Origin: Eledone cirrhosa
Lineage: Eukaryota
Length of the DNA: 64,000 nucleotides
Reading direction: 5' to 3'
NCBI GenBank assembly: GCA_964016885.1
Contig: OZ024748.1
Location: 31,496,001-31,560,000, forward strand
Shown here one piece after another: positions 6,721 through 64,000 of this stretch. The notes beneath the pieces are model-generated. The model did not search any database. It was not told where the DNA came from and was given only the letters and a program-made list of their open reading frames with translations. The position numbers were made by a program, and so were the translations under genes. Each line of letters begins with the position of its first letter. Position 1 is the first letter of the stretch.

Positions 6721-6748
6721 ATATATAAATATATATATATATATGACA

Positions 6749-8580
<1,832 letters not shown>

Positions 8581-11290: not shown

Positions 11291-11329
11291 ATGTATATAT
11301 ATATGTATATATATATGTATATCTATATG

Positions 11330-11366
<37 letters not shown>

Positions 11367-11479
11367 GTATATATATATGTATATATATGTATATATATAT
11401 ATGTATATATATATATATGTATATATATATGTATATATATGTATATATATATATATATATATATGCATATATATATATG

Positions 11480-11510
<31 letters not shown>

Positions 11511-11512
<2 letters not shown>

Positions 11513-13812
11513 CTTGGGGATTCCATAAGCCTGTAAGATCTTCATCAGGCAGTAACGGTCCACAGAATCAAAGGCCTTCCTAAAGTCAATGAAAACCATG
11601 ACCGCAGGAAGGCACTTTGCTCTAGCTCCCTCTAATATCCTCCTCAGCATCAGGATGTGACTGGTGGTTGATCTACCCTCTCTGAAGCCGTTCTGGTTGT
11701 CCCTGAGCTTCTTCTCCATCTCAGGCTGGATCCTGTTAAGAATCATCCTGTTGAGGGTCTTTGCCACAAGTGACGTCAGTGAGATCCCCCGGTAGTTGTT
11801 GGTGTTAGAGAGATCTCCCTTCTTTGGCACTGGGACGATGTTACTGATCCTCCACTGATTCGGGGCAACTCCTTTCTCCAGTGCCCCGTTACAGAACCCC
11901 AGGATGATATCATCAAAATCACACCTCTTCATCACCTCTGATGCCACTCCATCTTCTCCATGAGCCTTGCCCTCCTTGATCTTCTTCTTGGCTCTCTGAA
12001 GCTCCTCTCTGGTGAAGGGCTCTGTCTCAACATCCAGTTCCTCAAACAGCCGCCTGATCTCCCCAGTGCTCTGGGCTGTGGAGGGTGGCTCTCCTAGTAG
12101 GGTCCTAAAATGGTCTAGCCATTTCCTCTTCCTATCCTCGGGCCCCGTTCCCTGGATCTGACTCGAACACCTTTTCTTCCTCCCTGTGATCTCGTTGATG
12201 ATCATCCAGCTCTCCTTACATCCAGATCTGTCAACCGCTCTCTCCACACTTCTGATCTTCTCTATCAGTGCCTCCTCTCTGACCTCAGTGTAAGCGGTAC
12301 AGAGCTCTTCCCTCATCACCTCCACAGTCTCCATCCTCTCCTCCGTAGGATCAGCATAGAATTGGTCCCTGGCAGCTTTCAGGTGTTCTCTGGCTGCACA
12401 CACTTTTGGGTTTGCAGAGCTGACGTGCTTCCCTTTGTTCTTTTTCCTCGGCACCAGGGTTTCACTTGCTTTCGCCACTGCATTAGTGAAGTGCCCGTAC
12501 CTCCTCGTCACACTCTCCCCAGTCCATCCAATCTCTCTCTCCTCTGACTCTCCACACAGAGCACTAAACCTGTTTCTCACTTCCACTGGGAACCTCTCCT
12601 GTAGCTTATCATCTTCCTTGAAAGCTCCCCAGTCATAGATTGTTCTCCGAGGCTGAGCCTTGCTCTTTCTTAAGCTCACGCGGACCTCACTCATAACAAG
12701 CCGGTGGTCACTACCCAGTGTACTGAAATAGCTGTATGGTTCCGTGTTCAGAACACTATTCCGCCACTTTTTCCTCACCAGAATGAAATCAATCTGGGAC
12801 TTGGACAGGTGCATATCTGAGAAATAGGTCCACATCTTCCCCAGATTCTTCCTAAACCTTAGGTTGGTCGCCATCAAGTTCGCCTCCAGCAGGGTGTCTC
12901 TCAGTAGTCTTCCATTTCGGTTGGTGTTGTTATGGAAGTACCAGCAAGGATCTTCACTGCCCTCCTTACTCAGATGTGCATTGAAGTCCCCCAAAACAAG
13001 CAGGATATTGTGTGCCTGAGTGGTGTTGACAGCTCTACACACCTCCTCATGGAACTCCTCGGCATTCACATCACTGTCCCCCTCGGTTGGACTATAGGCT
13101 GAGATGACTGTCAGTCTTGGGTTTCCATTGAAGGTCACCCTCAACACTCGCGGGGAGATAGGCATTATTTCCCTCACCAACAGATTGGTTTTTGCACTGA
13201 ACACAAAACCCACTCCTCCTACTGCAGCATTTGTTGTGTTCTTCACTGCCGATGTAGTGATGAGCTGGCTCTTCCTCCCGATCATCACACTCCTCACGGG
13301 CTCATCGTGTAGAATCCCGTGTTCTTGGATCGCAAGTATCTGTATACCACTCTCCTCGAACAGATGTCCCAACTCCTCTCTCTTCTCCAGCGTTCGAATA
13401 GTCCTCACATTCAAAGTGCCCATTTTGATGGCTCTTCTGCAGGACAAAACTGCATTCTTTATATTTGTCTCAGAGACAGCTGATCCATCATCCACTGGCC
13501 CTCTCTGTGGCTCTAAGCCAGCAGAGTCATAGCGACCAGGCTGCTCCTTGACAGTGTAATTAGGGGCTCTAACCCTAGTGCTGTCAGATCGACTCTCCAT
13601 ATTTCTTTTCAATGGCTGACAATACCTTACCGGCGCCACTCGAATAAGGTAGTTATTTAACCCATAAATGGAGCCCTAACAAGTACTACCACCCCGGGCC
13701 AGGGCAGACCTGGGAGTCATGACAACTAAGGGGTAACTCCACATTCCCCACATCTCCTGAACTCCCGAACTGGAGCCTTGCCACTGGTTGTAGTTTAATG
13801 TCATATCCAGGA
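11511..13812 (-). mobile_element. RTE-type LINE, inverted 5' half: 5' UTR, APE endonuclease, N-terminal RT
   Basis: [30 protein letters not shown]; then [32 protein letters not shown]; ORF track 11288-13639 runs into TA after YGIPK. Confidence 0.93.
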
Positions 13813-14850
13813 TATGGAATCCCCAAGAAGATAGTGGACCTGATATCACTGCTCTACACCAACACCAAAGCCCAAGTCATTACACCTGATGGGATGACAG
13901 AGTTCTTTGAGATACTGGCTGGAGTGCTCCAGGGAGATACATTGGCTCCCTACCTTTTTGTCATCGTAGTGGACTATTGTATGCGCCTTGCACTGGAGAA
14001 ACACCAGGACACTGGCTTTACTGTGGCACCGGCTCAGAGCAGGAGAGTTGGGGCGAAAAAGGTATCGGATGCTGAATTTGCCGACGACATAGTTTTGGTG
14101 ACAAATACAGTGAAGGAGGCAGAGGATTTGATGCGGGAGGTTGAGACTGTGTCGATGAGTGTGGGGCTGAGAATGAATGAGACTAAAACAAAATATCTGG
14201 TAGAGAATGTTGAGAAGCCAGAGGGGATCACTAATGTAGGCGGGAAGCCGCTGGAATTGGTTGAGGACTTCCTGTATTTGGGAGCAAAGATTGGGAATAC
14301 GGAAGATGATGTGGTTGAGAGGAAGAGCAAGGCCTGGGCGGCGTGTCACAGCTTGAGATCGGTGTGGAAGTCGGACCTTCGTAGAGACCTGAAAATCCGC
14401 CTCTTCATTGCTATAGTGGAGTCTGTGCTGCTGTATGGGTCTGAGACTTGGATACTGACCAAGAGACTCACTCAGATGGTGGATGGGTGCTACACGAGAA
14501 TGCTGAGGATGGCTCTGAACATTGATCAGTATACACTGAGGATGAAAAACTCAGAGCTGTATGAGAGCATCCCAAAAGTCAGCTCAAAAGTGACACAGAG
14601 GAGACTGAGGTTGGCTGGGCATGCTCACCGACATCCAGAGTTGACATTGCACTCAGTGCTCCTTTGGGAGCCCCTACATGGACACACTAGAAGAGGAAGA
14701 CCAAGGTTAACATATGTTGATGCCCTAAGGACAGACACTGGTCTGTTGGAGATGCAGGATATGGCAGCGATAATGAGGGACAGAGACCGCTGGAGAGAAC
14801 TCGTCCATGGATCTCGGGAATTTTACCCGCCTTAGATAGATAGATAGATA
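13813..14850 (+). mobile_element. RTE-type LINE, 3' half of the same element, with (TAGA)n tail
   Basis: Resumes at YGIPKK; GVLQGDTLAP, FADDI, FLYLG, LLYGSETW, LRLAGH, GRPR; stop at 14835 then TAGA repeats. Confidence 0.93.
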
Positions 14851-15248
14851 TATATATATATATGTATATATATATGTATATATATATATATATATATAAA
14901 ACTACTTTTCATATGTTGATTTAAAACTGCACTATTCACAAGTGTGTTTTAACCTTCATATCATGTCTCCCTATTTTATCTGACGAAAACGCAAATGTTA
15001 TTGCATGATGATATTTGTTTTTAAAATGCGCATAATAAAATACATGGAACTCTTTTAACCATCTTTTGATCTTATATATTATTTATACTCCAGTCCTACA
15101 AACAGTAGAGTGCTACTTATCCGATATCTGCATTGCTTTATTGTACTACAATAAAACTCACCTCCTACATTAACTTGCTCTTTAACGGTTGAGCGCTAAC
15201 TCTCATATTGGATACCTTTTGATGGTCCTTTACCTTTTCTTCTACAAC

Positions 15249-17649
15249 ATGGATTATTACAACATAACCAATTCAACTAAAGACATTCCTATACCTGGTA
15301 AATCGGAATTCACCAAACTTCAAATTGAAAAAACTGACTCCTATGTAAGAAGGCTTAGATGGATAGCTTATTTCTATGACCAGCGCCTAAAAGGGAACTT
15401 CTATACTAAGGAACATAACTTCCTCGATCATCTATTTAATTCTAGAAGAAATCCTCCTTCCAACAAAAATCTAGTGCAATTCGAGGAGGAGTTAACTAAC
15501 ATTATAAAAAATCTTAAATTCAAGAGAAACCCTTACAGAGGACAGGAGCACCTTGTAAATCTCAAGAACACAATTTCAAACCTAAATTCCTCAAAAAATG
15601 TTTTAGTCCACTCTGACAAAACCAATAATTTATATGGTATTTCCAAGGATAACTATAACAGCCTTATCCTAAAGGAACTTATGAAAAAATATCGCAAAAC
15701 CAACCATGCTAATTTAGAATCCATAAACTTTGAAGCTTCTGAGATTATGTCGAAACTTGGCATCGGAAAAAAGACCGAACCATTCCTCCCAAGAACTCCG
15801 AGGATAAATCTCAAGGATCACAAAAACAATTTTCGTACTGAACTACCTGTTAGACTAATCTCCCCCTCTAAATCAGATCTGGGGGTTGTTAGCAAAGCCA
15901 TCTTGGATAGAAGTTCGTTCTAATTGCTCTTCTTTGAACTTAAATTTATGGTTTGGTACTTCTGAAGTGATTGGCTGGTTCAACAAATTGAATAAGAAAA
16001 ATAAACAAAAATGTATTCAATTTGATATTGACAGCTACTATTCTTCTATTTCGCCCTTACTTCTCAACAATGCTCTATCTTTCGCTTACAAATATTCAGA
16101 CATCACCACAGATGAAATTCACATCATTCTCACCGCACGTAAAACTATCCTAGAGTTCAACAATGAATATTGGACCAGAGTTGATACCTCTAACAACTTT
16201 GACATCACAATGGGAGCATCCGATTCATCCCAATTGACAGATTTAATTGGTATCTTTATTTTGAACTCTTTGAATCGGAAAATTCCTCAACTTCGCGGTG
16301 GAATTTATCGTGACGATGGACTCTTTACTATCTTAAATTGCAACATAGTTAACCTTAATATTATTAAGAACAATATACGTAATCTCTTTAACCAACATAA
16401 CTTAAAAATTGAATTTGATAACAGCATCAAACTAGCTAATTTCTTGGATGTATCTCTTAATCTTGACACTGGCCTATATTACCCTTACCATAAAAACAAT
16501 GAGAACCTAAATTATGTTAATTTTAAATCTAACCACCCTACCAATATTAAGAATGCTATAGTTAGTAATATTTGAAAAATAATATCTAACCTATCTTCTA
16601 ATAAAAACATCTTTTATGCTAACGCCAATTACTATAATAACGCGCTTTCTAAAGCTAGTTATCCTGATAAAATCAAATATAGTAAAGAAACAAATTCTAG
16701 AAGATCTTACAGTAGAATAATTAATCATGATCATTCCAATAACTTTAATAAAAGACCTAGATACAAAAACATAATCTGGTATAATGCTCCTTTCTCCATC
16801 TCTATTAATAATAATATTCCTAAATTATTCTTTAGTGCCTTAAATAAATGCTTCCCTCCCTCACATATCTATAGTAAAATATTTAACAAACACACTATAA
16901 AATTTTCCTATTCGACCTCCTCCAATATCTCCAACATTATCTCTAAACACAACAATAAAATACTAAATACTAAATCTCTTCCTTCCAACACTGAATATCA
17001 TAATAATAGTAATAGTACTCCCGACGTCATTGTAAACTCTAGGCTAATTTCTGCAAACCTAAATACAACGTCAAACGCAACTTCGCTAAATGTTCTTAAT
17101 CCCATTCTAAATCAAGAAACTATTATTCCTATCGTAAATAACTTCTCCAATCCTTCTATAGATCACTTGTTCACTTGTTCACTAGGTCACTTGTTAATAA
17201 CTCTGTTAATCTCTCTAATCGCAATTGCCCTGTTAAAAATAAATGTCCTCTCAACAACCATTGTCTTGAAAAAAAACTTAATCTACGAATGTAAAGTTAT
17301 AACTGACACCAATTCCTTTACCTATTTTGGCTCCACTTCCACCTCCTTTAAAGCTCGTCTTTATAATCATCATTCGTCTTTTAAATACCAACTTAAAAGA
17401 ACCAACACGGCACTCTCAGAACTCATATGGTTCTTGAAAGACAAAAATATTAACTATAACATCTCTTGGAAGAAGGTTTGTTCTGCTTCTCCATACTTGA
17501 ACAGTTCTCTCTCCAAGACATGCAATCTCTGTTTATGTGAACAATTTACCATTATATCTAATTTAGATTCTATAATAAATAGACGCACTGACTTGTTTTC
17601 TCTCTGCTTGCATAAATTCCACAGAACATTCCATAAAGTATACAGCTAA
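15249..17649 (+). pseudogene. Disrupted PLE RT/GIY-YIG ORF
   Basis: LKDHK, FDIDSYY, MGASDS, YRDDG, FLDV, IYEC..YFGST; frameshift ~15910, stop 16573-16575, further shifts ~17165-17275 relative to intact A2. Confidence 0.92.
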
Positions 17650-18678
17650 TATCTAATACTTTATCAATTTAAAATCGTTTTCTCAAAGGCACATATATAT
17701 ATATACATATATATTTCTTTAAAAATATACCCATCTTTCTACCTTATTTCAATGTTATTTATTATACATTATATAATACTAGTTACTCATTCTATATCAC
17801 TCCTATTTTCTCACTTCCCTTCTTTCTTTTTTCCTTTTTTCTTTTTCTTTTAATTTCTAACCCCTAATCTGTACCTTTTCTTCCTAGATACTTCTCAATT
17901 ATCATTGTGCCTAATGTAGAAACAATTATTACACAGCACAATATATTCTTACTTTATATCACCTTGAAAAAATCCTTCGTAAACATTAAAAATTTTTTAA
18001 ACAGTAAATATTTTTTAAACAGTAAAAATTTTTTAAACAGTAAAAATTTTTTGACATTAGATTATTCATCCTCAATTCATTATTTTTTTCTCCCTTTCAT
18101 GCTCATCTAACTTATACATATTACACTTATTCATCCAATCTTCTACTTCTTTCACAATATATCCTTACTTACATTACTATTGCTATATTTTTATATTTTT
18201 TTAATAATATATATCAACAATTTATTTCCATCCCACATATTATTACACCCTTAAATATTATTCTTAATACATATTAACAATTTCTTTTCATCGCACATAT
18301 TATTAAACCCTTAAATATACAAACCTTAACTTAACATTATTCTAAATTTTTCTCTTCGTTAATTTTCAAATTCTTTTAATTTATATATTATCTTCCAACG
18401 GTTTTTCAACCTCTCTATGTAAAACAATATATTTTTCTGTTATAAAGGCTATCTCTCTCTCTCTATCACCCGTCTCTCCTCCTATCTCATCCTTCCTCAT
18501 GATACTCCTCCCCCTCCACTTTTTACTCTCATCTCCTCCTCTTTTTCATCATCGCCCCGCCACCCTCAACATTTTTTGTCTCCCCCAATATCACACATCA
18601 ATCTAAAACTACTTTTCATATGTTGATTTAAAACTGCACTATTCACAAGTGTGTTTTAACCTTCATATCATGTCTCCC

Positions 18679-19196: not shown

Positions 19197-21885
19197 GATT
19201 AAGTTAAAGTGTACATCTACATATGTATACGGAAGTATTAGTATGCATATAAATACACACATGTATACATATGTACATGTACTCAGCTTTTCACTAGACA
19301 CTTTACAGTGAGTGTCAGCTAGTCTGTATGTAACCATACAGGCGGACGGGGTTTTAGAGTCATACGAGTTTTCAAGGAAACACATTTCCTCTATTCTCCA
19401 GAGGGCCAGACAGGAATATTGGACTAGTTTCGATGTTATTACATCTCATCAGCAATATTTACCCATCTTCCGGCTTCTCTGGAGAATTGTAAAAGCACAT
19501 ATCGTTATATGCTTTTTCTATGAAAATTAGTAGTGGGTAGACTAATTTGCATAGAACGTGAGTCATTGTACGCACCGGTTCAGCGGAAACGATAAAAACA
19601 AATAACGAAACGAAATTAAATTTCGTTTCGCTTCTAACTCACTTTTGTATGACTGACGCTTAGACAATTAAGTTAAAGTGTACATCTACATATGCATACG
19701 GAAGTATTAGTATGCATATAAATACACACATGTATACATATGTACATGTACTCAGCTTTTCACTAGACACTTTACAGTGAGTGTCAGCTAGTCTGTATGT
19801 AACCGTACAGGCGGACCGGGTATTAGAGTCATACGAGTTTTCAAGGAAACACATTTCCTCTATTCTCCAGAGGGCCAGACAGGAATATTGGACTAGTTTC
19901 GATGTTATTACATCTCATCAGCAATATTTACCCATCTTCCGGCTTCTCTGGAGAATTGTAAAAGCACATATCGTTATATGCTTTTTCTATGAAAATTAGT
20001 AGTGGGTAGACTAATTTGCATAGAACGTGAGTCATTGTACGCACCGGTTCAGCGGAAACGATAAAAACAAATAACGAAACGAAATTAAATTTCGTTTCGC
20101 TTCTAACTCACTTTTGTATGACTGACGCTTAAACAATTAAGTTAAAGTGTACATCTACATATGTATACGGAAGTATTAGTATGCATATAAATACACACAT
20201 GTATACATATGTACATGTACTCAGCTTTTCACTAGACACTTTACAGTGAGTGTCAGCTAATCTGTATGTAACCATACAGGCGGACCGGGTTTTAGAGTCA
20301 TACGAGTTTTCAAGGAAACACATTTCCTCTATTCTCCAGAGGGCCAGACAGGAATATTGGACTAGTTTCGATGTTATTACATCTCATCAGCAATATTTAC
20401 CCATCTTCCGGCTTCTCTGGAGAATTGTAAAAGCACATATCGTTATATGCTTTTTCTATGAAAATTAGTAGTGGGTAGACTAATTTGCATAGAACGTGAG
20501 TCATTGTACGCACCGGTTCAGCGGAAACGATAAAAACAAATAACGAAACGAAATTAAATTTCGTTTCGCTTCTAACTCACTTTTGTATGACTGACGCTTA
20601 AACAATTAAGTTAAAGTGTACATCTACATATGCATACGGAAGTATTAGTATGCATATAAATACACACATGTATACATATGTACATGTACTCAGCTTTTCA
20701 CTAGACACTTTACAGTGAGTGTCAGCTAGTCTGTATGTAACCATACAGGCGGACCGGGTTTTAGAGTCATACGAGTTTTCAAGGAAACACATTTCCTCTA
20801 TTCTCCAGAGGGCCAGACAGGAATATTGGACTAGTTTCGATGTTATTACATCTCATCAGCAATATTTACCCATCTTCCGGCTTCTCTGGAGAATTGTAAA
20901 AGCACAGATCGTTATATGCTTTTTCTATGAAAATTAGTAGTGGGTAGACTAATTTGCATAGAACGTGAGTCATTGTACGCACCGGTTCAGCGGAAACGAT
21001 AAAAACAAATAACGAAACGAAATTAAATTTCGTTTCGCTTCTAACTCACTTTTGTATGACTGAAGCCGGAAGATGGGTAAATATTGCTGATGAGATGTAA
21101 TAACATCGAAACTAGTCCAATATACCTGTCTGGCCCTCTGGAGAATAGAGGAAATGTGTTTCCTTGAAAACTCGTATGACTCTAAAACCCGGTCCGCCTG
21201 TATGGTTACATACAGACTAGCTGACACTCACTGTAAAGTGTCTAGTGAAAAGCTGAGTACATGTACATATGTATACATGTGTGTATTTATATGCATACTA
21301 ATACTTCCGTATACATATGTAGATGTACACTTTAACTTAATTGTTTAAGCGTCAGTCATACAAAAGTGAGTTAGAAGCGAAACGAAATTTAATTTCGTTT
21401 CGTTATTTGTTTTTATCGTTTCCGCTGAACCGGTGCGTACAATGACTCACGTTCTATGCAAATTAGTCTACCCACTACTAATTTTCATAGAAAAAGCATA
21501 TAACGATATGTGCTTTTACAATTCTCCAGAGAAGCTGGAAGATGGGTAAATATTGCTGATGAGATGTAATAACATCGAAACTAGTCCAATATTCCTGTCT
21601 GGCCCTCTGGAGAATAGAGGAAATGTGTTTCCTTGAAAACTCGTATCACTCTAAAACCCGGTCCGCCTGTATGGTTACATACAGACTAGCTGACACTCAC
21701 TGTAAAGTGTCTAGTGAAAAGCTGAGTACATGTACATATGTATACATGTGTGTATTTATATGCATACTAATACTTCCGTATACATATGTAGATGTACACT
21801 TTAACTTAATTGTTTAAGCGTCAGTCATACAAAAGTGAGTTAGAAGCGAAACGAAATTTAATTTCGTTTCGTTATTTGTTTTTAT
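19197..21885. repeat. Family E: 469-bp tandem repeat with one hammerhead per unit (4 units, then ~1.75 inverted units)
   Basis: Exact 469 period; inversion at ~21063; hammerheads at 19415, 19884, 20353, 20822 (-) and 21080, 21549 (+). Confidence 0.95.
21549..21593 (+). ncRNA. Canonical minimal type I hammerhead ribozyme (family E representative)
   Basis: AATATTG-CTGATGA-GATGT(AATA)ACATC-GAAA-CTAG-TC-CAATATT; perfect helices I and II, GUC triplet. Confidence 0.93.
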
Positions 21886-21960
21886 ATATATATGTATATA
21901 TATATATATATATGTATATATAAATATATATATGTATATATATATGTATATATATATATG

Positions 21961-22252
<292 letters not shown>

Positions 22253-22255
22253 TAT

Positions 22256-24811
<2,556 letters not shown>

Positions 24812-24838
24812 GTATATATATATGTATATATATATAAG

Positions 24839-24891
<53 letters not shown>

Positions 24892-24896
24892 GTATA

Positions 24897-24940
<44 letters not shown>

Positions 24941-25218
24941 GGCTGCTCAGCCGTTAATTTTCATAAGGAAAGTATATACTTTCGAACGTTCAACTATCTG
25001 GCAGATGGGTAAACGGTGCTGATGATAGCTAACAAGCTTGAAACTAGTACATCGTTCCTGTGTCAGTGTTGAACAAAAAGGTGACGTGGTTGCCTTAACA
25101 CCGTATGGCATAAATTCAGGCTGTTCGCTTTGTTGACAAACAAACGAACAAAGCGGCCGGCGTTATAATAAACGTAGGCTAAACTGATGCGTGCATATAT
25201 GTATGTATACCTGTATGC

Positions 25219-25292
<74 letters not shown>

Positions 25293-25753
25293 ATATATAT
25301 ATATATGTGCATGCTACTGTACGTCTGTATACATATATGTATGTACGTATACATACATACTTACATTTAAGTAAGTGCCATACTAAGAGTGAGAAATGAA
25401 ATTTCGTTTTCATTTTTTTTCAACTAATCGTTTTCGGTATGCCTGACCGATTTAACTCACTCAATATGCAAATTAGGCTGCTCAGCCGTTAATTTTCATA
25501 AGGAAAGTATATACTTTCGAACGTTCAACTATCTGGCAGATGGGTAAACGGTGCTGATGATAGCTAACAAGCTTGAAACTAGTACATCGTTCCTGTGTCA
25601 GTGTTGAACAAAAAGGTGACGTGGTTGCCTTAACACCGTATGGCATAAATTCAGGCTGTTCGCTTTGTTGACAAACAAACGAACAAAGCGGCCGGCGTTA
25701 TAATAAACGTAGGCTAAACTGATGCGTGCATATATTTATGTGTACATGTATGC

Positions 25754-25825
<72 letters not shown>

Positions 25826-26272
25826 GTGCATGCTACTGTACGTCTGTATACATATATGTATGTACGTATACATACATACTTACATTTAAGTAAGTGCCAT
25901 ACTAAGAGTGAGAAATGAAATTTCGTTTTCATTTTTTTTCAACTAATCGTTTTCGGTATGCCTGACCGATTTAACTCACTCAATATGCAAATTAGGCTGC
26001 TCAGCCGTTAATTTTCATAAGGAAAGTATATACTTTCGAACGTTCAACTATCTGGCAGATGGGTAAACGGTGCTGATGATAGCTAACAAGCTTGAAACTA
26101 GTACATCGTTCCTGTGTCAGTGTTGAACAAAAAGGTGACGTGGTTGCCTTAACACCGTATGGCATAAATTCAGGCTGTTCGCTTTGTTGACAAACAAACG
26201 AACAAAGCGGCCGGCGTTATAATAAACGTAGGCTAAACTGATGCGTGCATATATGTATGTGTACCTGTATGC

Positions 26273-26312
<40 letters not shown>

Positions 26313-26774
26313 ATATATATATATATGTGCATGCTACTGTACGTCTGTATACATATATGTATGTACGTATACATACATACTTACATTTAAGTAAGTGCCA
26401 TACTAAGAGTGAGAAATGAAATTTCGTTTTCATTTTTTTTTCAACTAATCGTTTTCGGTATGCCTGACCGATTTAACTCACTCAATATGCAAATTAGGCT
26501 GCTCAGCCGTTAATTTTCATAAGGAAAGTATATACTTTCGAACGTTCAACTATCTGGCAGATGGGTAAACGGTGCTGATGATAGCTAACAAGCTTGAAAC
26601 TAGTACATCGTTCCTGTGTCAGTGTTGAACAAAAAGGTGATGTGGTTGCCTTAACACCGTATGGCATAAATTCAGGCTGTTCGCTTTGTTGACAAACAAA
26701 CGAACAAAGCGGCCGGCGTTATAATAAACGTATTCTAAACTGATGCGTGCATATATGTATGTGTACCTGTATGC

Positions 26775-26873
<99 letters not shown>

Positions 26874-27318
26874 CATGCTACTGTACGTCTGTATACATAT
26901 ATGTATGTACGTATACATACATACTTACATTTAAGTAAGTGCCATACTAAGAGTGAGAAATGAAATTTCGTTTTCATTTTTTTTTCAACTAATCGTTTTC
27001 GGTATGCCTGACCGATTTAACTCACTCAATATGCAAATTAGGCTGCTCAGCCGTTAATTTTCATAAGGAAAGTATATACTTTCGAACGTTCAACTATCTG
27101 GCAGATGGGTAAACGGTGCTGATGATAGCTAACAAGCTTGAAACTAGTACATCGTTCCTGTGTCAGTGTTGAACAAAAAGGTGACGTGGTTGCCTTAACA
27201 CCGTATGGCATAAATTCAGGCTGTTCGCTTTGTTGACAAACAAACGAACAAAGCGGCCGGCGTTATAATAAAAGTAGGCTAAACTGATGCGTGCATATAT
27301 GTATGTGTACCTGTATGC

Positions 27319-27360
<42 letters not shown>

Positions 27361-27432
27361 ATATATATATATATATGTGCATGCTACTGTACGTCTGTAT
27401 ACATATATGTATGTACGTATACATACATACTT
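24941..27432 (+). repeat. Family D tandem array, ~5 units of 502-544 bp, each with a hammerhead and an internal (TA)n
   Basis: Hammerheads start at 25012, 25547, 26066, 26568, 27112; length variation is almost all in the internal TA tract. Confidence 0.95.
25547..25591 (+). ncRNA. Minimal type I hammerhead ribozyme (family D representative)
   Basis: AACGGTG-CTGATGA-tAGCT(AACA)AGCTt-GAAA-CTAG-TA-CATCGTT; 7-bp helix I with one G.U, GUA triplet. Confidence 0.88.
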
Positions 27433-27551: not shown

Positions 27552-27842
<291 letters not shown>

Positions 27843-27907
27843 TCTTTTACCTGTTTTAGCCACCCGGCTGAGGCCATGCTGGGGCACCGCCCTTGTTGCT
27901 ACACATT

Positions 27908-30870
27908 TTATCTCCAGCCTGTATAGGATGGCCACTGGTGTAAGAGGGAGTTTGTTGCTGCAGCTCTTACCTTTCCCTCGTGTCTTGCTGTGGGCTCATC
28001 CGGGATCCTGGATAACAAGGTGTCGAGATGTTTCTTGAAGACATCCACCTTCACGTCATGCAAATCTCTCAGATCCCTCGGCAGCCTGTTGAAGAGTTGA
28101 GGGCCCTTGAATCCCAGTCTATTGCAATACCTGCTCCTTATTCTAGATGTGGAAGACGGGACCTTTGGCACCACACAATGACGTCCTGTTCGACGGTTGG
28201 TCCAGCTCCCAATGCCAAAGTGTGGTGCTAGTCCCTCCAGGATTTTCCACATGTAGATCACTGCGTATCTCTCCCGTCTTCGCTCCAAGGAATAGAGGTT
28301 CAGTTCCTTTAGCCTCTCCCAGTAGCTTGTCTCCCTCATCTTGGCAATCCTCTTGGTGTAGCTTCGCTGGATTGCCTCAAACTCCGTGGTTAGTTTGACA
28401 CTATGGGGTGACCACAACTGGGAGCAGTTGTCCAGGCGGCTTAGGACAAATGTCCTCCATAGTGTCAACATGGTGTCTCGATCTCTTGTCCGGAAAGTCC
28501 TCAAGATCCAGCCAGCGAGTCGTCTGCACATTGTCGCCACTTTCATGATGTGTGAAGAAAAAGATGCATCATCGCTAATGTCTATGCCCAGGTCTCGTAT
28601 CGATTTTAACACGGGGATATCGGTCGGTCCTGATCCTGTGTTGTTGTGTTCCACTATATTTGTGTTTGCAGGTTTGTTTGGAGGTTTCTATTGTAGGGCT
28701 TGGAATTTGCCAGCATTAAACTGCATGTTGTTTTCTTCCGCCCATTTGTATATGGCATCCAGATCCTGCTGTAAAAGAGCAGCGCCAGCCGGGTTTTTGA
28801 TTGCCTGTGCTACCTTAGTGTCATCAGCATAGCTAGTGAGGTATGTTGTCGTATGTACTACAGAGGGCATGTCTGAGAGAGCCACCAAAAACAGTAGTGG
28901 TCCCAGGACTGTCCCCTGAGGCACCCCACTTGTTATTGGTGTTTGCTTTGAGAGGGTCCCATTTGATGCGACTGCCTGGCTTCTGTCCCTTAGGAAGCCA
29001 TGCAGCCACTCACCTACTTTTCCAGTTATGCCGAGTCCATATCATTCCGTGGGCGACCTTGTCAAAGGCCTTCGCAAAGTCAAGATATATCACGTCCGCA
29101 TGTGAGCTGTCTAGTAGTTGTCTCAGTACCCAGTCGTAGTGATGTAGCAGCTGTGTAAGGCAGCTTCTTCCTGGGTGGAAGCCATGTTGCATGCTAGTCA
29201 GGCGGTATTTTTCCTCGAGGAAAGTGATCAGTTTCTTTCTGACGACTCGCTCCATGACCTTACTGATATGCGACGTCAGGGAGACTGGCCTATAGTCTTT
29301 GGCCTCCGCTCTGCTACATCCTTTATGGATAGGGCATATTATGCCTTCTTTCAGCTCCCTGGGTAGTACACCGCTAGCCAAGGAGCTTCTGAAGAGCATC
29401 TTCAGTGGAGTTGCTAAGGCCCGCTTACATATTTTTAAGAGAACTGCTGCGAATCCATCAGGTCCAGCAGCCGAGTCTGTTCTAATTTCATCAATGGCGT
29501 ACACCACATCCTCCTCCGTTATGTCTATGTGGTTGATGGTTGCCATTTCTTCATGTAGTGTTGTGGCACCAAAGAACTCCTCTGGCTTCGTTATTTGCAT
29601 GTGCCTCAGTGGAAATGTGAACACACTTTTGTACTGTTCGTTCAGTATTTCACATATCTCTTGGGGGTTTTCGGTTGATGAACCGTCCGTATGGAAGAGT
29701 GGCCCAATCTTGCAGTTTACTGTGCCAGTTTCTTTTGCAAATTTAAAGAAGGCTTTAGGGTTTGTTTTAATGTTTTCTATGGCCCGATTCTCTTTCTTTG
29801 CCCTCTCATTCTCATGGGAAAGCTTGAGTGCAATCTCGGTGCCAAGTAATGCACATTTCAAATAGGATTCCTTCTTGTTTTTGTTTTGTTGACTATTCAA
29901 CTGGTTTGAGAGTTTAGTTCTACGTCTCATAAGGATTTTCCTATCTCTGGGAATAAAATTTTTGAGTCTGTTTGCCTTGTTCTCCGGGACCAACTTTTTG
30001 CATATAGTGTGTATCGTTGTCATGAAGTGTTGAAATTGTGTGTTTGTGTCTTGTGTGGCGGTGTTTTCACTCCATGATTGCTTCCGGATTTCTCTCTTAA
30101 TCTTTTTCCAGTTAGCCTTGTAGAAGTTAAGGCTGGATAACGTCCCGGAGCTTCTTAGTGGTTTTGTCTCTGTTGGTTCTCTTGGACCACATATCATTAG
30201 CTCTACTAAGTTATGATCCGAGAGAATTGTTGGTGTCACCTTTACATTGTGGATGAACACTTCGTTGTTTGTAAAACAGAGGTCCAGGACATTTTCGCCT
30301 CTTGTTGGAAGGAGTATTGCATGGACAGCCTGTGTGTGAGGGCCAGCAGGGATTCCGTCTGTCTCTGTTCTATTGACGTCATTCCAGGGAGGAGGTGGCC
30401 CTCAGGCCATTTGACCTTTGGTAGGTTGAAGTCTCCCAGCAGTAGAATGTTGAGACCCTGGTCCAGTTTGTCAAGGACCTCTTCTATCCTACTTAGGCTA
30501 TCCTCAAATTTACCCTCATGACTGGGGCATCGGGCGGCCGATATGTGACACATATTACTGTCTGTAGTTGCTTCATATGTACTATCAGTGTGTCACAGAC
30601 TGAGTTTGAATGTGTCAACAGTACAATTGGTGTGACATCTTCACGGATATACAGAGCAACCCCACCATGAGTTCTCTCCTTCCTGTCCGAACGAAATACA
30701 GTATATTTCGGTATATGTATTTCTGCATCTGCTATACTACTTGTCAGGTGCGTTTCGGTTAGTGCCATGCATAGTGCTTGATTGCTTATGGCTAAGTCTC
30801 CCAGGTAGGAAATTTTACTCATGTTACTGAGTTTCACCAGGCCTCTGGCATTCAGCAGCAGCACTGGTGT
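27908..30870 (-). pseudogene. LINE ORF2 (APE endonuclease + RT) broken by several frameshifts/stops
   Basis: LNARGL, LTETHL, GGVALYI, YRPP, LGDFNLP, SDHN, AAGPDG, YRPVSLTS, QHGF, YLDFAKAFDKV, PQGTVLGP, YADDTK, RDLGI, SLERRR across six ORF fragments. Confidence 0.92.
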
Positions 30871-31739
30871 GACTTTTGGAGTGCCAGTAATGGCTGTCGG
30901 TATGACACCTGGTCTGGTGACAGCGGCGGCCACTCTGGGTCCTTTAATTGTGGTGGTCTCGAGTGCTGGTGTGGATGTGGATAACCCTGGCTCTGGAGAC
31001 GATGCAGCCAGGTCAGCTGTCCCACAATCTTCTCTGCCATTACTAAAAAAATGTTCTGCTCTGCTGCTGCCATCTGTATCTCGTCGGCATGTGCGTGCCT
31101 TCTCCTTGTTGGTGCGGCACGCGCGACATCAGCATACTTCTGGAGCGGCTTATTTCGGCTTTGGCTGGGGCATGTTGCGCGAGTAAGATGGGCATAGTTC
31201 GTTTGAGACCTAGGGTGGGCGAATCTGCATCCCATCCCTGTCTCTCCATGACAGCATGTCCCGTTCTTGAAAAACTTGCACATTACTTGGGTTTTTTGGC
31301 TCCCAGTGTCTCGGTGCTTTCTGTTCTTCCTTTGAACAGTTGTCCACTGGTCCCTCTGCGCTTGGTTCTCCTTCGGAAGGTGATTTCGCTTTTCACCTTT
31401 GCCCTTTGCTTGTTGGTTGCCCGGCCTGCCCTCCCTGCCTGTGGCGGAGGGTATATCATTTTCTTTCAGGTCCGTGTTTGTGCTCTCCTCCTTTTCTTTT
31501 TCCTTTTCCTTCTCTTTCTCCTCATCCCTCTCTTCGGTTTTCTCCTCCCTGAGGACACGGCTTAGCATCGCCATATGTGGCGCTATGAGGACATACGCCT
31601 TCTCAATTTCTTTTCTCTTTCTCTCTATCTGTGCCAGGGTCCTTAGAAACCCATGGCTTTTCAGGTTCTCCGCCATCTTTTTGCTTGGTGGAGACCCATC
31701 AGCCATGGTCCACCCCTTGATCAAAACCTCTAGTTCCAT
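30852..31739 (-). CDS. LINE ORF1-like protein with charged coiled-coil segment and a CCCH-type zinc finger
   Basis: Lies directly upstream of the APE domain; CKFFKNGTCCHGETGMGCRFAHP; C-terminal part probably frameshifted. Confidence 0.6.
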   Translation of the reverse strand: MELEVLIKGWTMADGSPPSKKMAENLKSHGFLRTLAQIERKRKEIEKAYVLIAPHMAMLSRVLREEKTEERDEEKEKEKEKEKEESTNTDLKENDIPSATGREGRPGNQQAKGKGEKRNHLPKENQAQRDQWTTVQRKNRKHRDTGSQKTQVMCKFFKNGTCCHGETGMGCRFAHPRSQTNYAHLTRATCPSQSRNKPLQKYADVARAAPTRRRHAHADEIQMAAAEQNIFLVMAEKIVGQLTWLHRLQSQGYPHPHQHSRPPQLKDPEWPPLSPDQVSYRQPLLALQKSHQCCC

Positions 31740-32797
31740 CTTTGACCAGTTTCACTGACTCCTAATTTCACCTTTTTCCTGTATGCAGCCATTGCGCTGT
31801 GGAGGGGAGAAAGAGAGACAGTGGGAAGTGTAGGGTAGAGGTTAGAGAGGGACAGAGGGAGGGAGGGAGATATAAGTCCAGTGAGATATTGAAGGAGCGA
31901 TCTAGAGGAAAAAAGAGAGAGAGCTTGTGCGATCCAGAGAGAGAGAAAAAGAAACAGAAGAAAAGGGGAGAGAGACAGAAGAGAGGAGCGAGAGAGATAG
32001 CGGGAAGAGTGGGGGGAAAGGTCAGAGAGAGAGGAGACAGATATGTCCGGTGAGAAATTCAAGGTGCGATTTAGAGAGAGAAAGAGAGGGGGAGAGAGAG
32101 AGAGCTCGTGGATCTAGAGAGAGAGAGAGAGAAAGGAAGGAGAGAGATATAGAGACAGCGTCAAAAATAGCAGTTCATGAAATAAGAATAATAAATTTTA
32201 AATTAAATGAATGAATGGAAGAAACCGAATGAAAGAAACCGAAAATGTTAAAGATATAGAAACACGATGTAAGTTGTATATAAGTTGAATTTAAATGTTT
32301 GTTTACAAATATAAATAACGGGAAACGTATAGATTGACCATAGTTATTGTAATATCAATATATAAAAACAAGAAACAACAAACACACAAGCTCACCGAGT
32401 CAAAAACAAATAAAATTATATTAAATTATGTTACTCAGAAAAATCAAAATAATACAAGATCTACTTAAGTTAAATTAAAATTAGATTACGTACTCTGTAT
32501 GGTAGTCAAGAAAAATAGAAAGCACGTGTGTGTGTTGTCTCCTATGAGGGTATCACACGGTGAAAATAAACATGTTTAAAACGCTAATATATGTAAAATA
32601 TACTTCAAAATAATTGCGTCAAAGCTCAAAAACTTATCTTTTTTGTATGTTTTCCGTGTCTTCTGAAAAACTAAAGCCATACATAATTCCGATCACTGTC
32701 GATTTAAAATATTAAAATTTCAAATCTGAACGTTCAACAATTCACGTCCTATACCAACAAGTTGCCAAGCCTATATATCTGTATATATATGTATATA

Positions 32798-33036: not shown

Positions 33037-33099
33037 GTATATATATATATATGTATATATATGTATATATATATGTATATATATATATATGTATATATA

Positions 33100-33148
33100 A
33101 GTATGTATGTATACGTACATACATATATGTATACAGACGTACAGTAGC

Positions 33149-33185
<37 letters not shown>

Positions 33186-33517
33186 CAGGCACACATATAT
33201 ACATGTACGTATCAATTTAGCCAATATTTATTATAACATTCGCTTTGTTCGTTTGTAAACAAACGGACAGCCTGATTTATGCCGTACGGTGTTAAGGCAA
33301 CCACGTCACTTTTTTGTTCAACACTGACACAGGAACAATGTACTAGTTTCAAGCTTGTTAGCTATCGTCAGCACCGTATACCCTTCTGCCAGATGGTTGA
33401 ACGTTCGAAAGTAAGTATATACTTTCCATATGAAAATTCACGGCTGAGCAAACGAACAAAGCGAATGTTATAATAAATATTCGCTAAACTGATACGTACA
33501 TGTATATATGTGTGCTG

Positions 33518-33611
<94 letters not shown>

Positions 33612-33937
33612 CATGCTATTGTACGTCTGTATACATATATGTATGTACGTACATGCATACTTACATTTAAGTAAGTGCCGTACTAAGAGTGAGAAATGAA
33701 ATTTCGTTTCATTCTATTCCAACTTATCGTTTTCGGTGCGCCTGGCCGACTGAACTCACTCGATATGCAAATTAGGCTGCTCAGCCGTTAATTTTCATAA
33801 GGAAAGTATATACTTTCGATCGTTCAACCATCTGGCAGAAGGGTATACGCTGCCGACGATAGCTAACAAGCTTGAAACTAGTACATCGTTCCTGTGTCAG
33901 TGTTGAACAAAAAGGTGACGTGGTTGCCTTAACACCG

Positions 33938-33981
<44 letters not shown>

Positions 33982-34090
33982 CATGCTACTGTACGTCTAT
34001 ACATATATGTATGTACGTATACATACATACTTACATTTAAGTAAGTGCCGTACTAAGAGTGAGAAATGAAATTTCGTTTCATTCTATTCC
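33100..34090. repeat. Diverged family D units, divergent orientation
   Basis: Hammerhead with CTGACGA at 33334-33378 (-); core-mutated CCGACGA copy at 33846-33890 (+); inversion ~33450. Confidence 0.85.
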
Positions 34091-36551: not shown

Positions 36552-39500
36552 ATAATGATTGCGGATGAATATTCAAAAAGTCAAAAACAAATGTTATTGT
36601 TTTACGAGAAGATAGGATGAGGTAAATGAATAAACGAGTACTATAGAGTGTATAATGCCCTTTAAAGTAAGGTAGATGGGTATATTTTAAAGAGGTGTAT
36701 GTATATGTGCCTTTGAGAAAAGATTCTAAATTGATAAAGAATTGAATATTAACTGTATACTTTGTGAAAAGTTCTATGGAATTTATGCAGGCAGATGGAA
36801 AACAAATCCGAGCGTCTATTTATTATGGATTCTAGGTTAGAGATAATGGTAAATTTTTCATTTAGGCAGAGATTACAGATTTTAGATAGAGAACTGTTCA
36901 AGTACGAGGATGCAGAAGAAATCTTTTTCCAAAAGATGTTATATTTAATGTTTTTGTCTTTTAAGGACCATATGAGTTCTGAGAGAGCAGTGTTAGTTCT
37001 TTTAAGTTTGTATTTGAAAGATGAATGATGATTATAGAGACGAGCTTTAAAAGAGGTGGAAGTGGAGCCAAAATAGGTGAAGGAGTTGGTGCTAGTTATA
37101 ATTTTACATTCATAAATTAAGTTTTTATCGAGGCAATGGTTGTTGAGAGGACATTTATTTTTAATGCGGCAGTTGCAATTAGAGAGATTATTAATGAGTG
37201 ATCTAGTGTTATCTATAGAAGGAATTGGATTGGAGAAGTTGTTTGCGATAGGAATAATAGGAATAATAGTTTCTTGATTTAGAGTTGGATTATGAACATT
37301 TAGCGAAGTTGTGTTTGACGTTGCATTTGGGTTTACAGAAGTTAGCCTAGGGTTTACAATGACGTCGGGAGTACTATTATTGTTATTATGAGATTCAATA
37401 TTGGAAGGAAGAGATTTAGTATTTAATATTTTGTTGTTGTGTTTAGAAATGATGTTGGAAATATTGGAGGATGTAGAATACGAAAATTTAATGGTGTGTT
37501 TGTTAAATATTTTACTATAGATATGTGAGGGAGGGAAGCATTTATTTAAGGCACTAAAAAATAATTTAGGAATATTGTTATTAATAGAGATGGAGAAAGG
37601 AGCATTATACCAGATTATGTTTTTGTATCTAGGTCTTTTATTAAAATTATTGGAATGGTTATGATTAAATATTCTACTGTAAGTTTTCCTAGAATTTGTT
37701 TCTTTATTATATTTGATTTTATCTGGATAGCCAGCTTTAGAAAGTGCGTTATTATAGTAATTGGCGTTAGCATAAAAGATGTTTTTATTAGAAGATATGT
37801 TAGATATTCTATTTCCAATATTATTAACTATAGCATTCTTGATATTGGTAGGATGGTTAGATTTAAAGTTAACATAATTAAGATTCTCATTGTTTTTATG
37901 GTAAGGGTAATATAGGCCAGTGTCAAGATTAAGAGATACATCCAAGAAATTAGCTAGTTTGGTACTATTATCAAATTCAATTTTTAGGTTATGTTGGTTA
38001 AAGAGATTACGTATATTGTTCTTAATAATATTAAGTTTAACTATATTGCAATTTAGGATAGTAAAGAGTCCATCGTCACGATAAATTCCACCGCGAAGTT
38101 GAGGAATTTTCCGACTCAAAGAGTTCAAAATGAAGATACCAATTAAATCAGTCAGTTGGGATGAATCGGATGCTCCCATTGTGATGTCGAAGTTGTTAGA
38201 GGTATCGGCTCTGGTCCAATATTCGTTGTTGAACTCTAGGATGGTTTTACGTGCGGTGAGGATGATGTGAAGTTCATCTGTGGTGATGTCAGAATATTTA
38301 AGTGCGAAAGATAGAGCATTATTGAGAAGTGAAGGCGAAATGGAGGAATAGTAGCTGGCAATATCGAATTGAATAAATTTTAGTTTGTTTTTATTATCCA
38401 ATTTGTTGAACCAGCCAATCACTTCAGAAGTACCAAACCATAAATTTAGGTTTAAAGAAGAGCAATTAGAACTAACCTGTGGGATAATCCTATCCAAGAT
38501 GGCTTTACTAACAACCCCCAGATCAGATTTAGAGGGGGCGATTAATCTAACAGGTAGTTCAGTGCGAAAATTGTTTTTGTGATCCTTGAGATTTATCCTC
38601 GGAGTTCTTGGGAGGAATGGTTCGGTCTTTTTTTCAATGCCAAGTTTTGACATAATCTCATAGGCTTCAAGGTTTATGCATTCTAAATTTTCATGGTTGG
38701 TTTTACGATACTTTTTCCTAAGTTCCTTTAGGATAAGGTTGTTATAATTATCCTTGGAAATACCATATAGGTTATTGGTTTTGTCAGAGTGGACTAAAAC
38801 ATTTTTTGAGGAATTTAGGTTAGAGATTGTGTTCTTGAGATTTACAAGGTGCTCTTGTCCTTTGTAAGGGTATCTCTTGAATTTAAGATTTTTTATAATT
38901 TTAGTTAATTCTTCCTCGAATTGTGCTAGATTTTTGTTGGAAGGAGGATTTCGTCTGGAATTAAAAAGATGATCGAGGAAGTTGTGTTCTTTGGTATGAA
39001 AGTTCCCTTTTAGGCGCTGGTCATAGAAATAGGCTGTCCATCTAAGTCTTCTTACGAAGGAGTCAGTTTTTTCAATAAGAAGTTTGGTGAATTCAGATTT
39101 ACCAGGTATAGGAATGTCTTTAGTAGAATTGGTTATGTTGTAATAATCCATGTTGTAGAAGAAGAGGTGAAGGACCATCAAAAGGTATCCAATATGAGAG
39201 TAAGCGCTCAACCGTTAAGGAGCAAGTAAATGTAGGAGGTGAGTTTTATTGTAGTACAATAAAGCAATGCAGATATCGGATAAGAAGCACTCTACAGTTT
39301 GTGGGACTGGAGTATGCATAATATAAGATCAAAAGATGGTTAAAGGAGTTCAATATATTTTATTATGCGCATTTCAAAAACAAACATCATCAAACAATAA
39401 CATTTGTGTTTTCATCAGATAAAACAGGAGAACATGATATGAAGGCTAAAAAAAACACTTGTTGATAGTGCAGTTTTAAATCAACATATGAAAAGTGGTT

Positions 39501-39923
39501 TTAGATTGATGTGTGATATTGGGAAAAATATTTTATTTAGAGAGGGGGGGAAAATTTTTTAATTTATACAGTATCTTCCAACGGTTTTCAACCCCTCTAT
39601 ATAAAATATATCTCCTCTCTGTTATAAAAACTATCTCTTTCTCTCTATCACCCATCTCTCCCTCTCATCTCCTTCCCTTTTCATCCTTTTCTCTCCCCCC
39701 CTCTCTAAATAAAATATTTTTCCCAATATCACACATCAATCTAAAAACACTTGTTGATAGTTGATTTAAAACTGCACTATCAACAAGTGTTTTTTTAACC
39801 TTCATATCATGTTCTCCTGTTTTATCTGATGAAAACACAAATGTTATTGTTTGATGATGTTTGTTTTTGAAATGCGCATGATAAAATATATTGAACTCCT
39901 TTAACCATCTTTTGATCTTATAT

Positions 39924-39927
<4 letters not shown>
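35292..39927 (-). mobile_element. Full-length PLE A2 with direct pseudo-LTRs and an inverted 5' pseudo-LTR
   Basis: Direct repeats ~35292-35620 and ~39231-39550; inverted copy ~39551-39927; three hammerheads; TA at both ends. Confidence 0.95.
36749..39151 (-). CDS. Intact PLE reverse transcriptase / GIY-YIG endonuclease (~800 aa from MDYYN), Hydra-clade-like
   Basis: Uninterrupted ORF: SDKTNN, LKDHK, FDIASYY, MGASDS, YRDDG, FLDV, WYNAPF, CNC-x5-CP, IYEC-x9-YFGST, CNLC..E, CLH. Confidence 0.93.
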   Translation of the reverse strand: MDYYNITNSTKDIPIPGKSEFTKLLIEKTDSFVRRLRWTAYFYDQRLKGNFHTKEHNFLDHLFNSRRNPPSNKNLAQFEEELTKIIKNLKFKRYPYKGQEHLVNLKNTISNLNSSKNVLVHSDKTNNLYGISKDNYNNLILKELRKKYRKTNHENLECINLEAYEIMSKLGIEKKTEPFLPRTPRINLKDHKNNFRTELPVRLIAPSKSDLGVVSKAILDRIIPQVSSNCSSLNLNLWFGTSEVIGWFNKLDNKNKLKFIQFDIASYYSSISPSLLNNALSFALKYSDITTDELHIILTARKTILEFNNEYWTRADTSNNFDITMGASDSSQLTDLIGIFILNSLSRKIPQLRGGIYRDDGLFTILNCNIVKLNIIKNNIRNLFNQHNLKIEFDNSTKLANFLDVSLNLDTGLYYPYHKNNENLNYVNFKSNHPTNIKNAIVNNIGNRISNISSNKNIFYANANYYNNALSKAGYPDKIKYNKETNSRKTYSRIFNHNHSNNFNKRPRYKNIIWYNAPFSISINNNIPKLFFSALNKCFPPSHIYSKIFNKHTIKFSYSTSSNISNIISKHNNKILNTKSLPSNIESHNNNNSTPDVIVNPRLTSVNPNATSNTTSLNVHNPTLNQETIIPIIPIANNFSNPIPSIDNTRSLINNLSNCNCRIKNKCPLNNHCLDKNLIYECKIITSTNSFTYFGSTSTSFKARLYNHHSSFKYKLKRTNTALSELIWSLKDKNIKYNIFWKKISSASSYLNSSLSKICNLCLNEKFTIISNLESIINRRSDLFSICLHKFHRTFHKVYS

Positions 39928-40018
<91 letters not shown>

Positions 40019-40031
40019 GTGTGTGTGTGTA

Positions 40032-58901: not shown

Positions 58902-59076
58902 GTAATAACATCGAAACTAGTCCAATATTCCAGAATAGAGGAAATGTGTTTCCTTGAAAACTCGTATGACTCTAAAACCCGGTCCGCCTGTATGGTTACA
59001 TACAGACTAGCTGACACTCACTGTAAAGTGTCTAGTGAAAAGCTGAGTACATGTACATATGTATACATGTGTGTAT
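58902..59076 (+). repeat. Family E fragment starting inside the hammerhead
   Basis: TGTAATAACATCGAAACTAGTCCAATATTCC... matches ~21565-21755 with a short deletion. Confidence 0.9.
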
Positions 59077-59085
59077 TATTTCTAT

Positions 59086-64000
<4,915 letters not shown>

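Follow-up and report, generated by a model that had tools for sequence, protein, structure and literature searches.

Two tandem repeat families that carry hammerhead ribozyme cores, D and E, lie close together in the genome of Eledone cirrhosa (3.0 Gb). The locus raises the question of whether such arrays are passive satellite DNA or copies of an RNA whose fold and cutting are under selection, and of how they reached the genome. A preliminary description of the D array had proposed that D and E are homologous, that their helices were replaced with pairing kept around an invariant core, and that both are functional RNA replicons of one lineage and not passive satellite DNA. We examined positions 31,496,001-31,560,000 of contig OZ024748.1 (64,000 nucleotides, hereafter the window), together with related copies elsewhere in the genome. 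Our reading is that D and E are mobile, non-coding RNA-derived elements, and that a Penelope-like enzyme probably wrote them into DNA.

Results

The D and E arrays

(TA)n tracts and Penelope-like elements (PLEs) are plentiful across the window (Table 1). No partner arm accompanies the D array. Its five cores delimit cut-to-cut units of 535, 519, 502 and 544 nt, the inner (TA)n accounting for most of the length variation; overall, units measure 422-545 nt, the shortest being the 422-nt unit of an older subfamily (old D), and G+C is 28-35% in 2-kb bins of these arrays. A core is present in every tandem unit (5/5 in the D array, 6/6 in the E array). D and E hold no protein frame, all frames above 120 aa being driven by (TA)n, and no open frame with RT plus GIY-YIG, so that neither qualifies as an autonomous PLE. 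An LTR layout is absent from the mapped D/E loci, and the insertion ends sit in (TA)n, where target-site duplications are unreadable.

Table 1. Positions of D, E and PLE-A features in the window
Feature	Position	Strand	Remarks
D array, single arm	24941..27432	+	5 hammerhead cores; 5'-truncated within octamer stem; 3' end at site A, joined to (TA)n
Type I hammerhead, one of D's five	25538..25596	+	core 25554-25584; U·U at helix II base; helix III of 1 bp with palindromic loop
Predicted D cut sites (GUA)	after 25584; others after 25049, 26103, 26605, 27149	+	from sequence
Extended helix I and outer stem, closing monomer ends	25523..25609	+	predicted fold
Octamer-containing stem	25465..25500	+	5' arm near-invariant across subfamilies; 3' arm different in old D
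P1 domain (stem GAGTGAG/CTCACTC), with ACTCAC and AATTTCGTTT blocks and site B	25387..25462	+	
P2 domain, with inner (TA)n hairpin and site A	25103..25383	+	long-range stem, 25103-25109 with 25377-25383
Site A, short 3' insertion end	25361..25369	+	putative reverse-transcription start 1
Site B, long ('tailed') 3' insertion end	25425..25428	+	putative reverse-transcription start 2
E array, minus arm	19198..21066	-	4 cores; 469-nt units; end at site A in (TA)n
E array, plus arm	21062..21885	+	2 cores; end at site B in (TA)n
Older two-armed D insertion	33092..34090	both	minus arm to A, plus arm to B; minus core C7; plus core damaged
Rearranged D insertion(s)	6721..8496		2 full cores; one arm ending at site B
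D copies in local rearranged duplicate	61107..64000	+	4 cores; interleaved with Penelope terminal repeats
Two-armed PLE-A fragment between E and D arrays	22257..24525		tailed end 22257, short end 24525, minimal hammerhead 24334

Positions 58901-64000 repeat 21096-25865 in rearranged form and with internal deletions, comprising an E fragment, PLE-A arms, (TA)n and D. At the end of this copy, a PLE-A terminal repeat with a minimal hammerhead, (TA)n and part of D make up a new tandem unit of 1.1 kb, which looks like a composite two-ribozyme repeat at birth; as a mobile family this chimera was rejected, its 2 genome matches both lying inside the window. The window also holds an AT-rich cluster of 166/285/453-bp repeats without a hammerhead core (56149-58905) and LINE-type endonuclease/RT frames at 11288-14835, 27842-31751 and 39885-41522, the first of them broken by (TA)n at 11291-11512.

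Homology of D and E

Local alignment of the D and E monomers scored 75, against 21.3 ± 2.6 for shuffled sequence, and none of 300 dinucleotide shuffles scored as high. The part upstream of the core scored 50 alone (17.9 ± 2.6 shuffled; 0/300), so that homology is beyond chance with the core excluded too, and the middle part scored 45 (20.7 shuffled; 0/300) in a match that falls in TA-rich sequence. Identity in the 3' region is 61% (150/245 aligned columns); the same region is 85% identical between D and old D and 93% between E and its sister family F. The eight shared blocks and four helix pairs of the preliminary description were all located where expected (D unit 25400-25609, E unit 21391-21613). 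The block order given there is correct as a circular order, since AATTTCGTTT precedes ACTCAC in the cut-to-cut unit.

Helix pairing is expected of any hammerhead, and many dispersed single hammerheads in the genome carry the identical helix III palindrome. D and E might therefore be unrelated repeats that converged on the core and paired helices that every hammerhead needs. We give this idea practically no credence and regard it as already refuted by the homology beyond the core, unless the shared blocks turn out to occur in unrelated repeat families. D and E also agree in domain order, fold and homologous end sites (A and B, below), and a covariance model built from D only gave dispersed hammerheads 12-16 bits (three of seven, the other four not being among the matches listed), against 52-61 for full E and F copies. 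Judged from their sequences, D and E are two branches of one non-coding repeat lineage, as first proposed.

The hammerhead core

The cores have the canonical type I residues C3-A9, G12-A14 and A15.1-U16.1 and a cut triplet of the form NUH; among those tabulated, position 17 is A, C or U and position 7 is U or C. The triplet is GUA in D, GUC in E and GUU in F, so the GUA first quoted as the cut triplet is right for D but not for E. A position-7 variant does exist in the window, though its core lies at 33341-33371 on the minus strand; C7 is frequent in older D subfamilies, and the adjoining plus-strand copy (33853) has a damaged core. Helix II is paired in both families, although the first comparison set a 4-bp D helix against a 5-bp E helix and overlooked a U·U in D: the D helix has four Watson-Crick pairs plus U·U at 10.1/11.1 (in 9/9 D rows), where E and F have G10.1-C11.1. 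Helix III of D and E is 1 bp with a palindromic loop, which implies dimeric cleavage (PMC4209133; PMC7229834). Rfam gave no match at gathering scores in the whole window; below threshold, D matched HH9 with 18.5 bits (E-value 0.74), and the other sub-threshold matches in the window were discarded as miRNA-family artefacts of (TA)n.

Of 115 units picked by the octamer and not by the core, 101 keep an intact core. Lineage-level variants, defined as common to at least three loci, touch 0/15 core columns in D, where 52/233 of all columns vary (p 0.02), and 0/15 in E, where 30/245 vary (p 0.13). The core is thus invariant at this level, with 0/30 columns hit in D and E together, and because it was spared, cutting appears to matter for spread. 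From sequence and fold, the D/E ribozyme would be functional. D is probably a weak one, by analogy with axolotl ribozymes in which its two weakening features, the U·U at 10.1/11.1 and the 1-bp helix III, occur singly. HHR_Amex1 has a single-pair helix III with a palindromic tetraloop, the form shared by D and E, and is active as a dimer; HHR_Amex2 has the U·U at the helix II base and is an active natural precedent for D, this U·U type cutting 22% per hour as a monomer (PMC7229834). D unites the two.

Covariation and common fold

Covariation was scored on 13 subfamily representatives (rows out of 23 clusters). Seven of the 26 in-register pairs are altered on both sides, all seven in helices I and II, and the score of 0.239 compares with 0.089 ± 0.015 for shuffled rows (0/500 as high) and at most 0.099 for slid controls. 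Between D and E of the window, two-sided changes fall in exactly the same 6 of 12 helix I/II pairs, and all six pair in E (p ~1.5e-6). The positions often unpaired are a U·U at the end of helix I (8 rows) and the U·U at 10.1/11.1 (9 rows). The octamer stem and helix III have no two-sided change and so are not covariation evidence. Outer stems and side hairpins are paired in both families, as first described, but they are out of column register in the MAFFT alignment, and they were for that reason left out of the pair count.

The shuffle control disregards relatedness among rows, and independent events were therefore counted. Five separate D from E, in addition to the U·U versus G-C difference. 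Further pairing events are G·U to U·G in old D (helix I) and A-U to U-A in F; P2 contributes two (three paired states in 12, 26 and 31 loci, with 2 off-diagonal) and P1 one, in a few old-D copies. The covariation amounts to about nine independent events on a two-branch tree without deep sampling.

A model that has not seen E nevertheless recognizes it by its pairing. Trained on nine D sequences, the D-only model gave full E copies 59-61 bits with pairs and 30-32 without, and F copies 52-54 and 20-23, respectively; for D itself, pairing information adds only 14 bits. Whole D and E monomers are predicted to share a five-armed layout (z -9.6 and -11.4) in which helix I joins the two cut ends. Covariation with retained pairing was thus borne out both by the shuffles and by the held-out E copies (61 bits against 30). 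The events are few, but these compensatory changes, together with core sparing, give good support for selection acting on RNA structure and the catalytic core.

Taken by itself, covariation in a hammerhead is unremarkable, and a precedent exists. For the pDo500 hammerhead satellite of Dolichopoda crickets, selection was argued from compensatory stem changes and core conservation before the D/E case (PMC2837043). Unlike in pDo500, covariation in D/E reaches stems beyond the ribozyme and is tied to the insertion ends.

The octamer block

The invariant block is what we take to be an octamer, and we name it so. A near-invariant 5' arm paired with a 3' arm that differs in old D suggests that selection acts on the sequence. 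A snRNA-type promoter, such as newt satellite 2 reportedly has, found no support: D/E do not match the host U1/U2 promoter pattern, the best matches in D and E being equalled by 82/200 and 41/200 shuffles with an admittedly crude matrix. The host U1/U2 genes have a common TCAGT element near -57 and AT-rich boxes, and the octamer upstream in 1/13. The host U1 and U2 genes themselves stand in tandem arrays (L131-L133, L163-L178).

Copy number and subfamilies

The young D/E/F stem has 17,259 exact genome matches (control 0), the old-D stem form 14,444 pattern matches (control 377) and D-type cores 11,814 (control 0), and a further genome pattern search gave 64 matches, nearly all F. The lineage totals about 31,000 units genome-wide, dispersed over many contigs. 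D spread recently, because the best 40 matches to a 261-nt D piece are 100% identical; they lie on two contigs. Among four sequencing-run contig sets, X1 gave subfamily variants and each of the others just 1-3 contigs; no RNA run was listed among those that contain the repeats. A search for sister families returned 123 matches (control 12). Twenty were fetched; 4 proved to be old D copies and the other 16 lone hammerheads that lack the upstream blocks, and no new sister family was accepted. Lone diverged cores in unique DNA (L071-L084, L089, L090) have a D/E-type helix III palindrome and neither D/E blocks nor a PLE frame nearby; they are possibly relics of older families.

Two fixed insertion ends

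Arms were walked from the last ribozyme in 95 stretches (the window and 94 loci, taken from early hit lists, mostly on contig C1 and not at random). Five of the 149 arms lay at stretch edges and were dropped. Among the remaining 144, 53 end at site A and 71 at site B (124/144), in windows that span 11% of the D unit and 7% of the E unit; one counted A end is the local PLE junction at 62016. TA-rich DNA abuts 109 of the 124 A/B ends. The other 20 arms comprise 13 that end elsewhere and 7 that run on via a damaged core or to the stretch end. Arms often stand back to back (36 pairs), and where both ends were classed (27 pairs), 26 are A+B, one is B+B and none is A+A (p 1e-7). The single B+B pair is probably a secondary inversion.

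Sites A and B are homologous between D and E, and old D uses both too (its ends were read by eye). Site A is located at a small hairpin that immediately precedes the 3' strand of P2, and B just past the first hairpin in the P1 domain, 60-75 nt beyond A; neither coincides with the ribozyme cut site. Two fixed ends and the A+B rule correspond to the 'tail' footprint of Penelope elements.

PLE insertions have an inverted 5'-truncated partner copy, often with a tail at one end only, and the Naiad and Hydra clades favour (TA)n (PMC8557442). A purified PLE protein, predicted to form a dimer, cuts and extends both DNA strands and begins reverse transcription at a pair of internal RNA positions, which delimit the genomic tail (PMC11167929). 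Since D/E carry this footprint, we infer PLE-driven copying from both sides of a break.

These ends also bear on the claim that D and E are RNA replicons. Viroid-like copying from RNA to RNA, only occasionally written into DNA, would suit viroid-sized, strongly folded units with an end-closing helix and many close haplotypes, and RNA-RNA replication was raised as one possibility for the heterogeneity of mussel retrozymes (PMC7229834). We nonetheless judge it highly unlikely for D and E: no minus-strand ribozyme was found, genomic subfamilies explain all diversity seen, and there are about 31,000 DNA copies with a retrotransposition footprint. That part of the preliminary description is unsupported, the copy ends pointing to reverse transcription by a Penelope-like element.

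Penelope-like elements in the window

PLE-A has, among 21 ends, 12 short, 8 tailed and 1 running on, with a spacing of 60 nt, and its junction has five bases in common with site B. It is abundant (115 scored copies of 94-100% identity, some with long open frames), and we tentatively choose it as the best candidate helper family, at somewhat less than an even chance. PLE-B showed one end type in 5 junctions. A third family, PLE-C (1659-2014, 5386-5600, 6514-6721), carries a hammerhead of its own; its two ends are separated by about 135 nt, and its tail is likewise about 135 nt.

Pfam applied to seven PLE frames gave one weak RVT_1 match (E-value 5e-4) and PDB none; PLEs were therefore identified by visual comparison of GIY-YIG and linker motifs with PMC8557442. 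By such linker motifs, PLE-A appears Neptune-like and PLE-B Hydra-like. The minus strand at 36749-39214 carries a PLE frame open over 821 aa, which has Hydra-type motifs and terminal repeats with hammerheads; a disrupted 89% copy lies at 14894-17812. At G000:C8:31575846-31576907, 34 kb downstream, a PLE-A copy encodes a protein 100% identical to that of window positions 45399-46460, the pair being either a recent local duplication or an assembly duplicate.

Comparison of 16 window regions (PLE ends and other repeats) with D and E gave no credible match in 32 comparisons; the only two with at most 1/100 shuffles as high were both TA-rich. The PLE ends of the window were thus rejected as sequence donor of D/E. 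With respect to the PLE families of the window, D/E show no terminal-repeat homology by which descent from a PLE could be recognized.

Circle, multimer and later expansion

Across 175 arms, the 5' ends scatter and do not accumulate at the cut site. Eighteen arms reach a full unit upstream, and 16 of them continue past the cut site into a whole or damaged core (2 are unclear). A linear cut monomer was therefore rejected as template, and because arms pass through the cut site, the template would be either a circle, which we favour, or an uncut multimer.

The latter would be a read-through transcript of an existing array, copied by the same kind of PLE-like helper, with the ribozyme retained for stability or for 5'/3' processing. 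Such a template accounts equally well for junctions that run across the cut site, and the E array of the window shows a 2-unit periodicity. The purified anole PLE uses unprocessed RNA, inserting it uncut with the ribozyme dispensable for insertion (PMC11167929). D is probably a weak ribozyme (compare the slow axolotl U·U type), and 8/9 Xenopus retrozyme dimers stayed uncut in vitro (10.64898/2026.07.22.740005). A core free of lineage-level change speaks against an uncut template, however, as do the predicted union of the cut ends in helix I and ten arrays of 4-11 scored units without common internal variants, as expected from a one-unit template. Circles were moreover demonstrated for coral, mussel and axolotl retrozymes (PMC7229834). 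On balance, we consider an uncut template rather unlikely.

D units within an arm and in opposite arms of one insertion have a median divergence of 0, against 6.1% between loci. Seven longer arrays do have variants common to units (L040/41, L048, L091, L099, L102, L106, L039), several in 2-3-unit blocks, which indicates later tandem expansion. A dimer-circle reading of 2-unit periodicity was set aside as inseparable from such later duplication. L048 (G000:C1:14042500-14052400) is a 15-unit E array in which 4 units have a damaged helix III palindrome at a 2-3-unit spacing. Arms or units of one insertion form mosaic haplotypes in L056 and L117, which suggests template switching between two RNA variants. 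A>G makes up 11/35 locus-fixed changes against 13/168 unit-private ones (p 4.5e-4), an excess that may hint at RNA editing; among locus-fixed changes, A>G does not differ significantly from T>C (11:5, p 0.21).

Long arrays with blocks of common variants are what a minisatellite would leave if it spread passively at the DNA level, by unequal exchange or extrachromosomal DNA circles, with the ribozyme as a relic, and the rearranged duplicate in the window, with a D-to-PLE junction unique to it, is in keeping with this. For origin and spread, this account is already largely refuted and we hold it very improbable, in view of the two fixed ends, the A+B rule, the (TA)n target, dispersal over many contigs, compensation between RNA stem strands separated by as much as 270 nt and the G·U to U·G exchange in helix I. 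That D and E are not passive satellite DNA is thus right as regards their mobile origin (ends and dispersal), but several long arrays show later satellite-like expansion.

Discussion

We consider it probable that the D/E lineage, with its conserved core, predicted five-armed fold and two ends, consists of non-LTR retrozymes whose self-cut circles are copied into (TA)n by a Penelope-like enzyme. Tandem transcripts would cut themselves as double hammerheads, and the units would be ligated into RNA circles. A Penelope-like endonuclease/reverse transcriptase would then copy the circle into (TA)n DNA from both sides of a break, one DNA strand being primed at A and the other at B, and the two cDNAs would join at variable points. 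Some arrays would expand passively afterwards.

From sequence, D/E most likely belong to a known class, the non-LTR retrozymes. As in metazoan retrozymes, the units are non-coding, tandemly arranged, a few hundred bases long and low in G+C, each with one type I hammerhead; the copies run to thousands, a genome holds several families, and PLEs co-occur. For metazoan retrozymes, mobilization by PLEs was already proposed from co-occurrence or homology (PMC7229834; 10.64898/2026.07.22.740005). The units are at or above the published range of 150-450 nt (PMC7229834), and D/E have no PLE terminal-repeat homology, whereas 24/57 Xenopus families do (10.64898/2026.07.22.740005). Circles and cleavage were demonstrated in that work, while for D/E they are predicted from sequence. 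The two fixed ends, the A+B rule and the back-to-back arms found no counterpart in the accessible text of either source. More widely, a partial search of the literature gave no account of fixed ends, tails or back-to-back arms in retrozymes, nor of a cephalopod retrozyme; the supplementary life-cycle figure of PMC7229834 and the tables of 10.64898/2026.07.22.740005 may bear on this.

EN+ PLEs are the other close known system. With them D/E share the inverted 5'-truncated partner arm, the tail at one end only and the (TA)n target and, to judge by the footprint, two internal reverse-transcription starts with both strands extended (PMC8557442; PMC11167929). Unlike EN+ PLEs, D/E have no protein, a canonical and not a minimal hammerhead, and no sequence likeness to a local PLE. 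Their tail measures 60-75 nt, compared with 60 nt in PLE-A and 30-40 bp in published PLEs (PMC8557442; PMC11167929). Multicopy head-to-tail non-autonomous PLE derivatives are known in Chlamydomonas (PMC8557442), and we group non-autonomous Chlamys elements such as MRC1 with the EN+ PLEs in this respect.

It is conceivable, though somewhat short of probable, that one self-cut and re-ligated circle is bound once by a Penelope enzyme dimer. The D/E fold would then be a protein-free handle in which the P2/P1 module presents A to one cut strand and B to the other, and both strands would be copied round the circle. If this is true, animal retrozymes would be circular-RNA transposons whose helper signal is set by structure, independently of sequence; covariation could map that signal, and it could be transplanted.

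The enzyme that writes animal retrozymes into DNA, and its template, have so far been proposed, not shown. That two families only 61% alike keep both end sites and the surrounding stems names a candidate enzyme class. The end sites give exact predicted start points and the stems mark the RNA module to mutate, so that the question of the helper becomes a direct in vitro test, for which an assay exists for one PLE.
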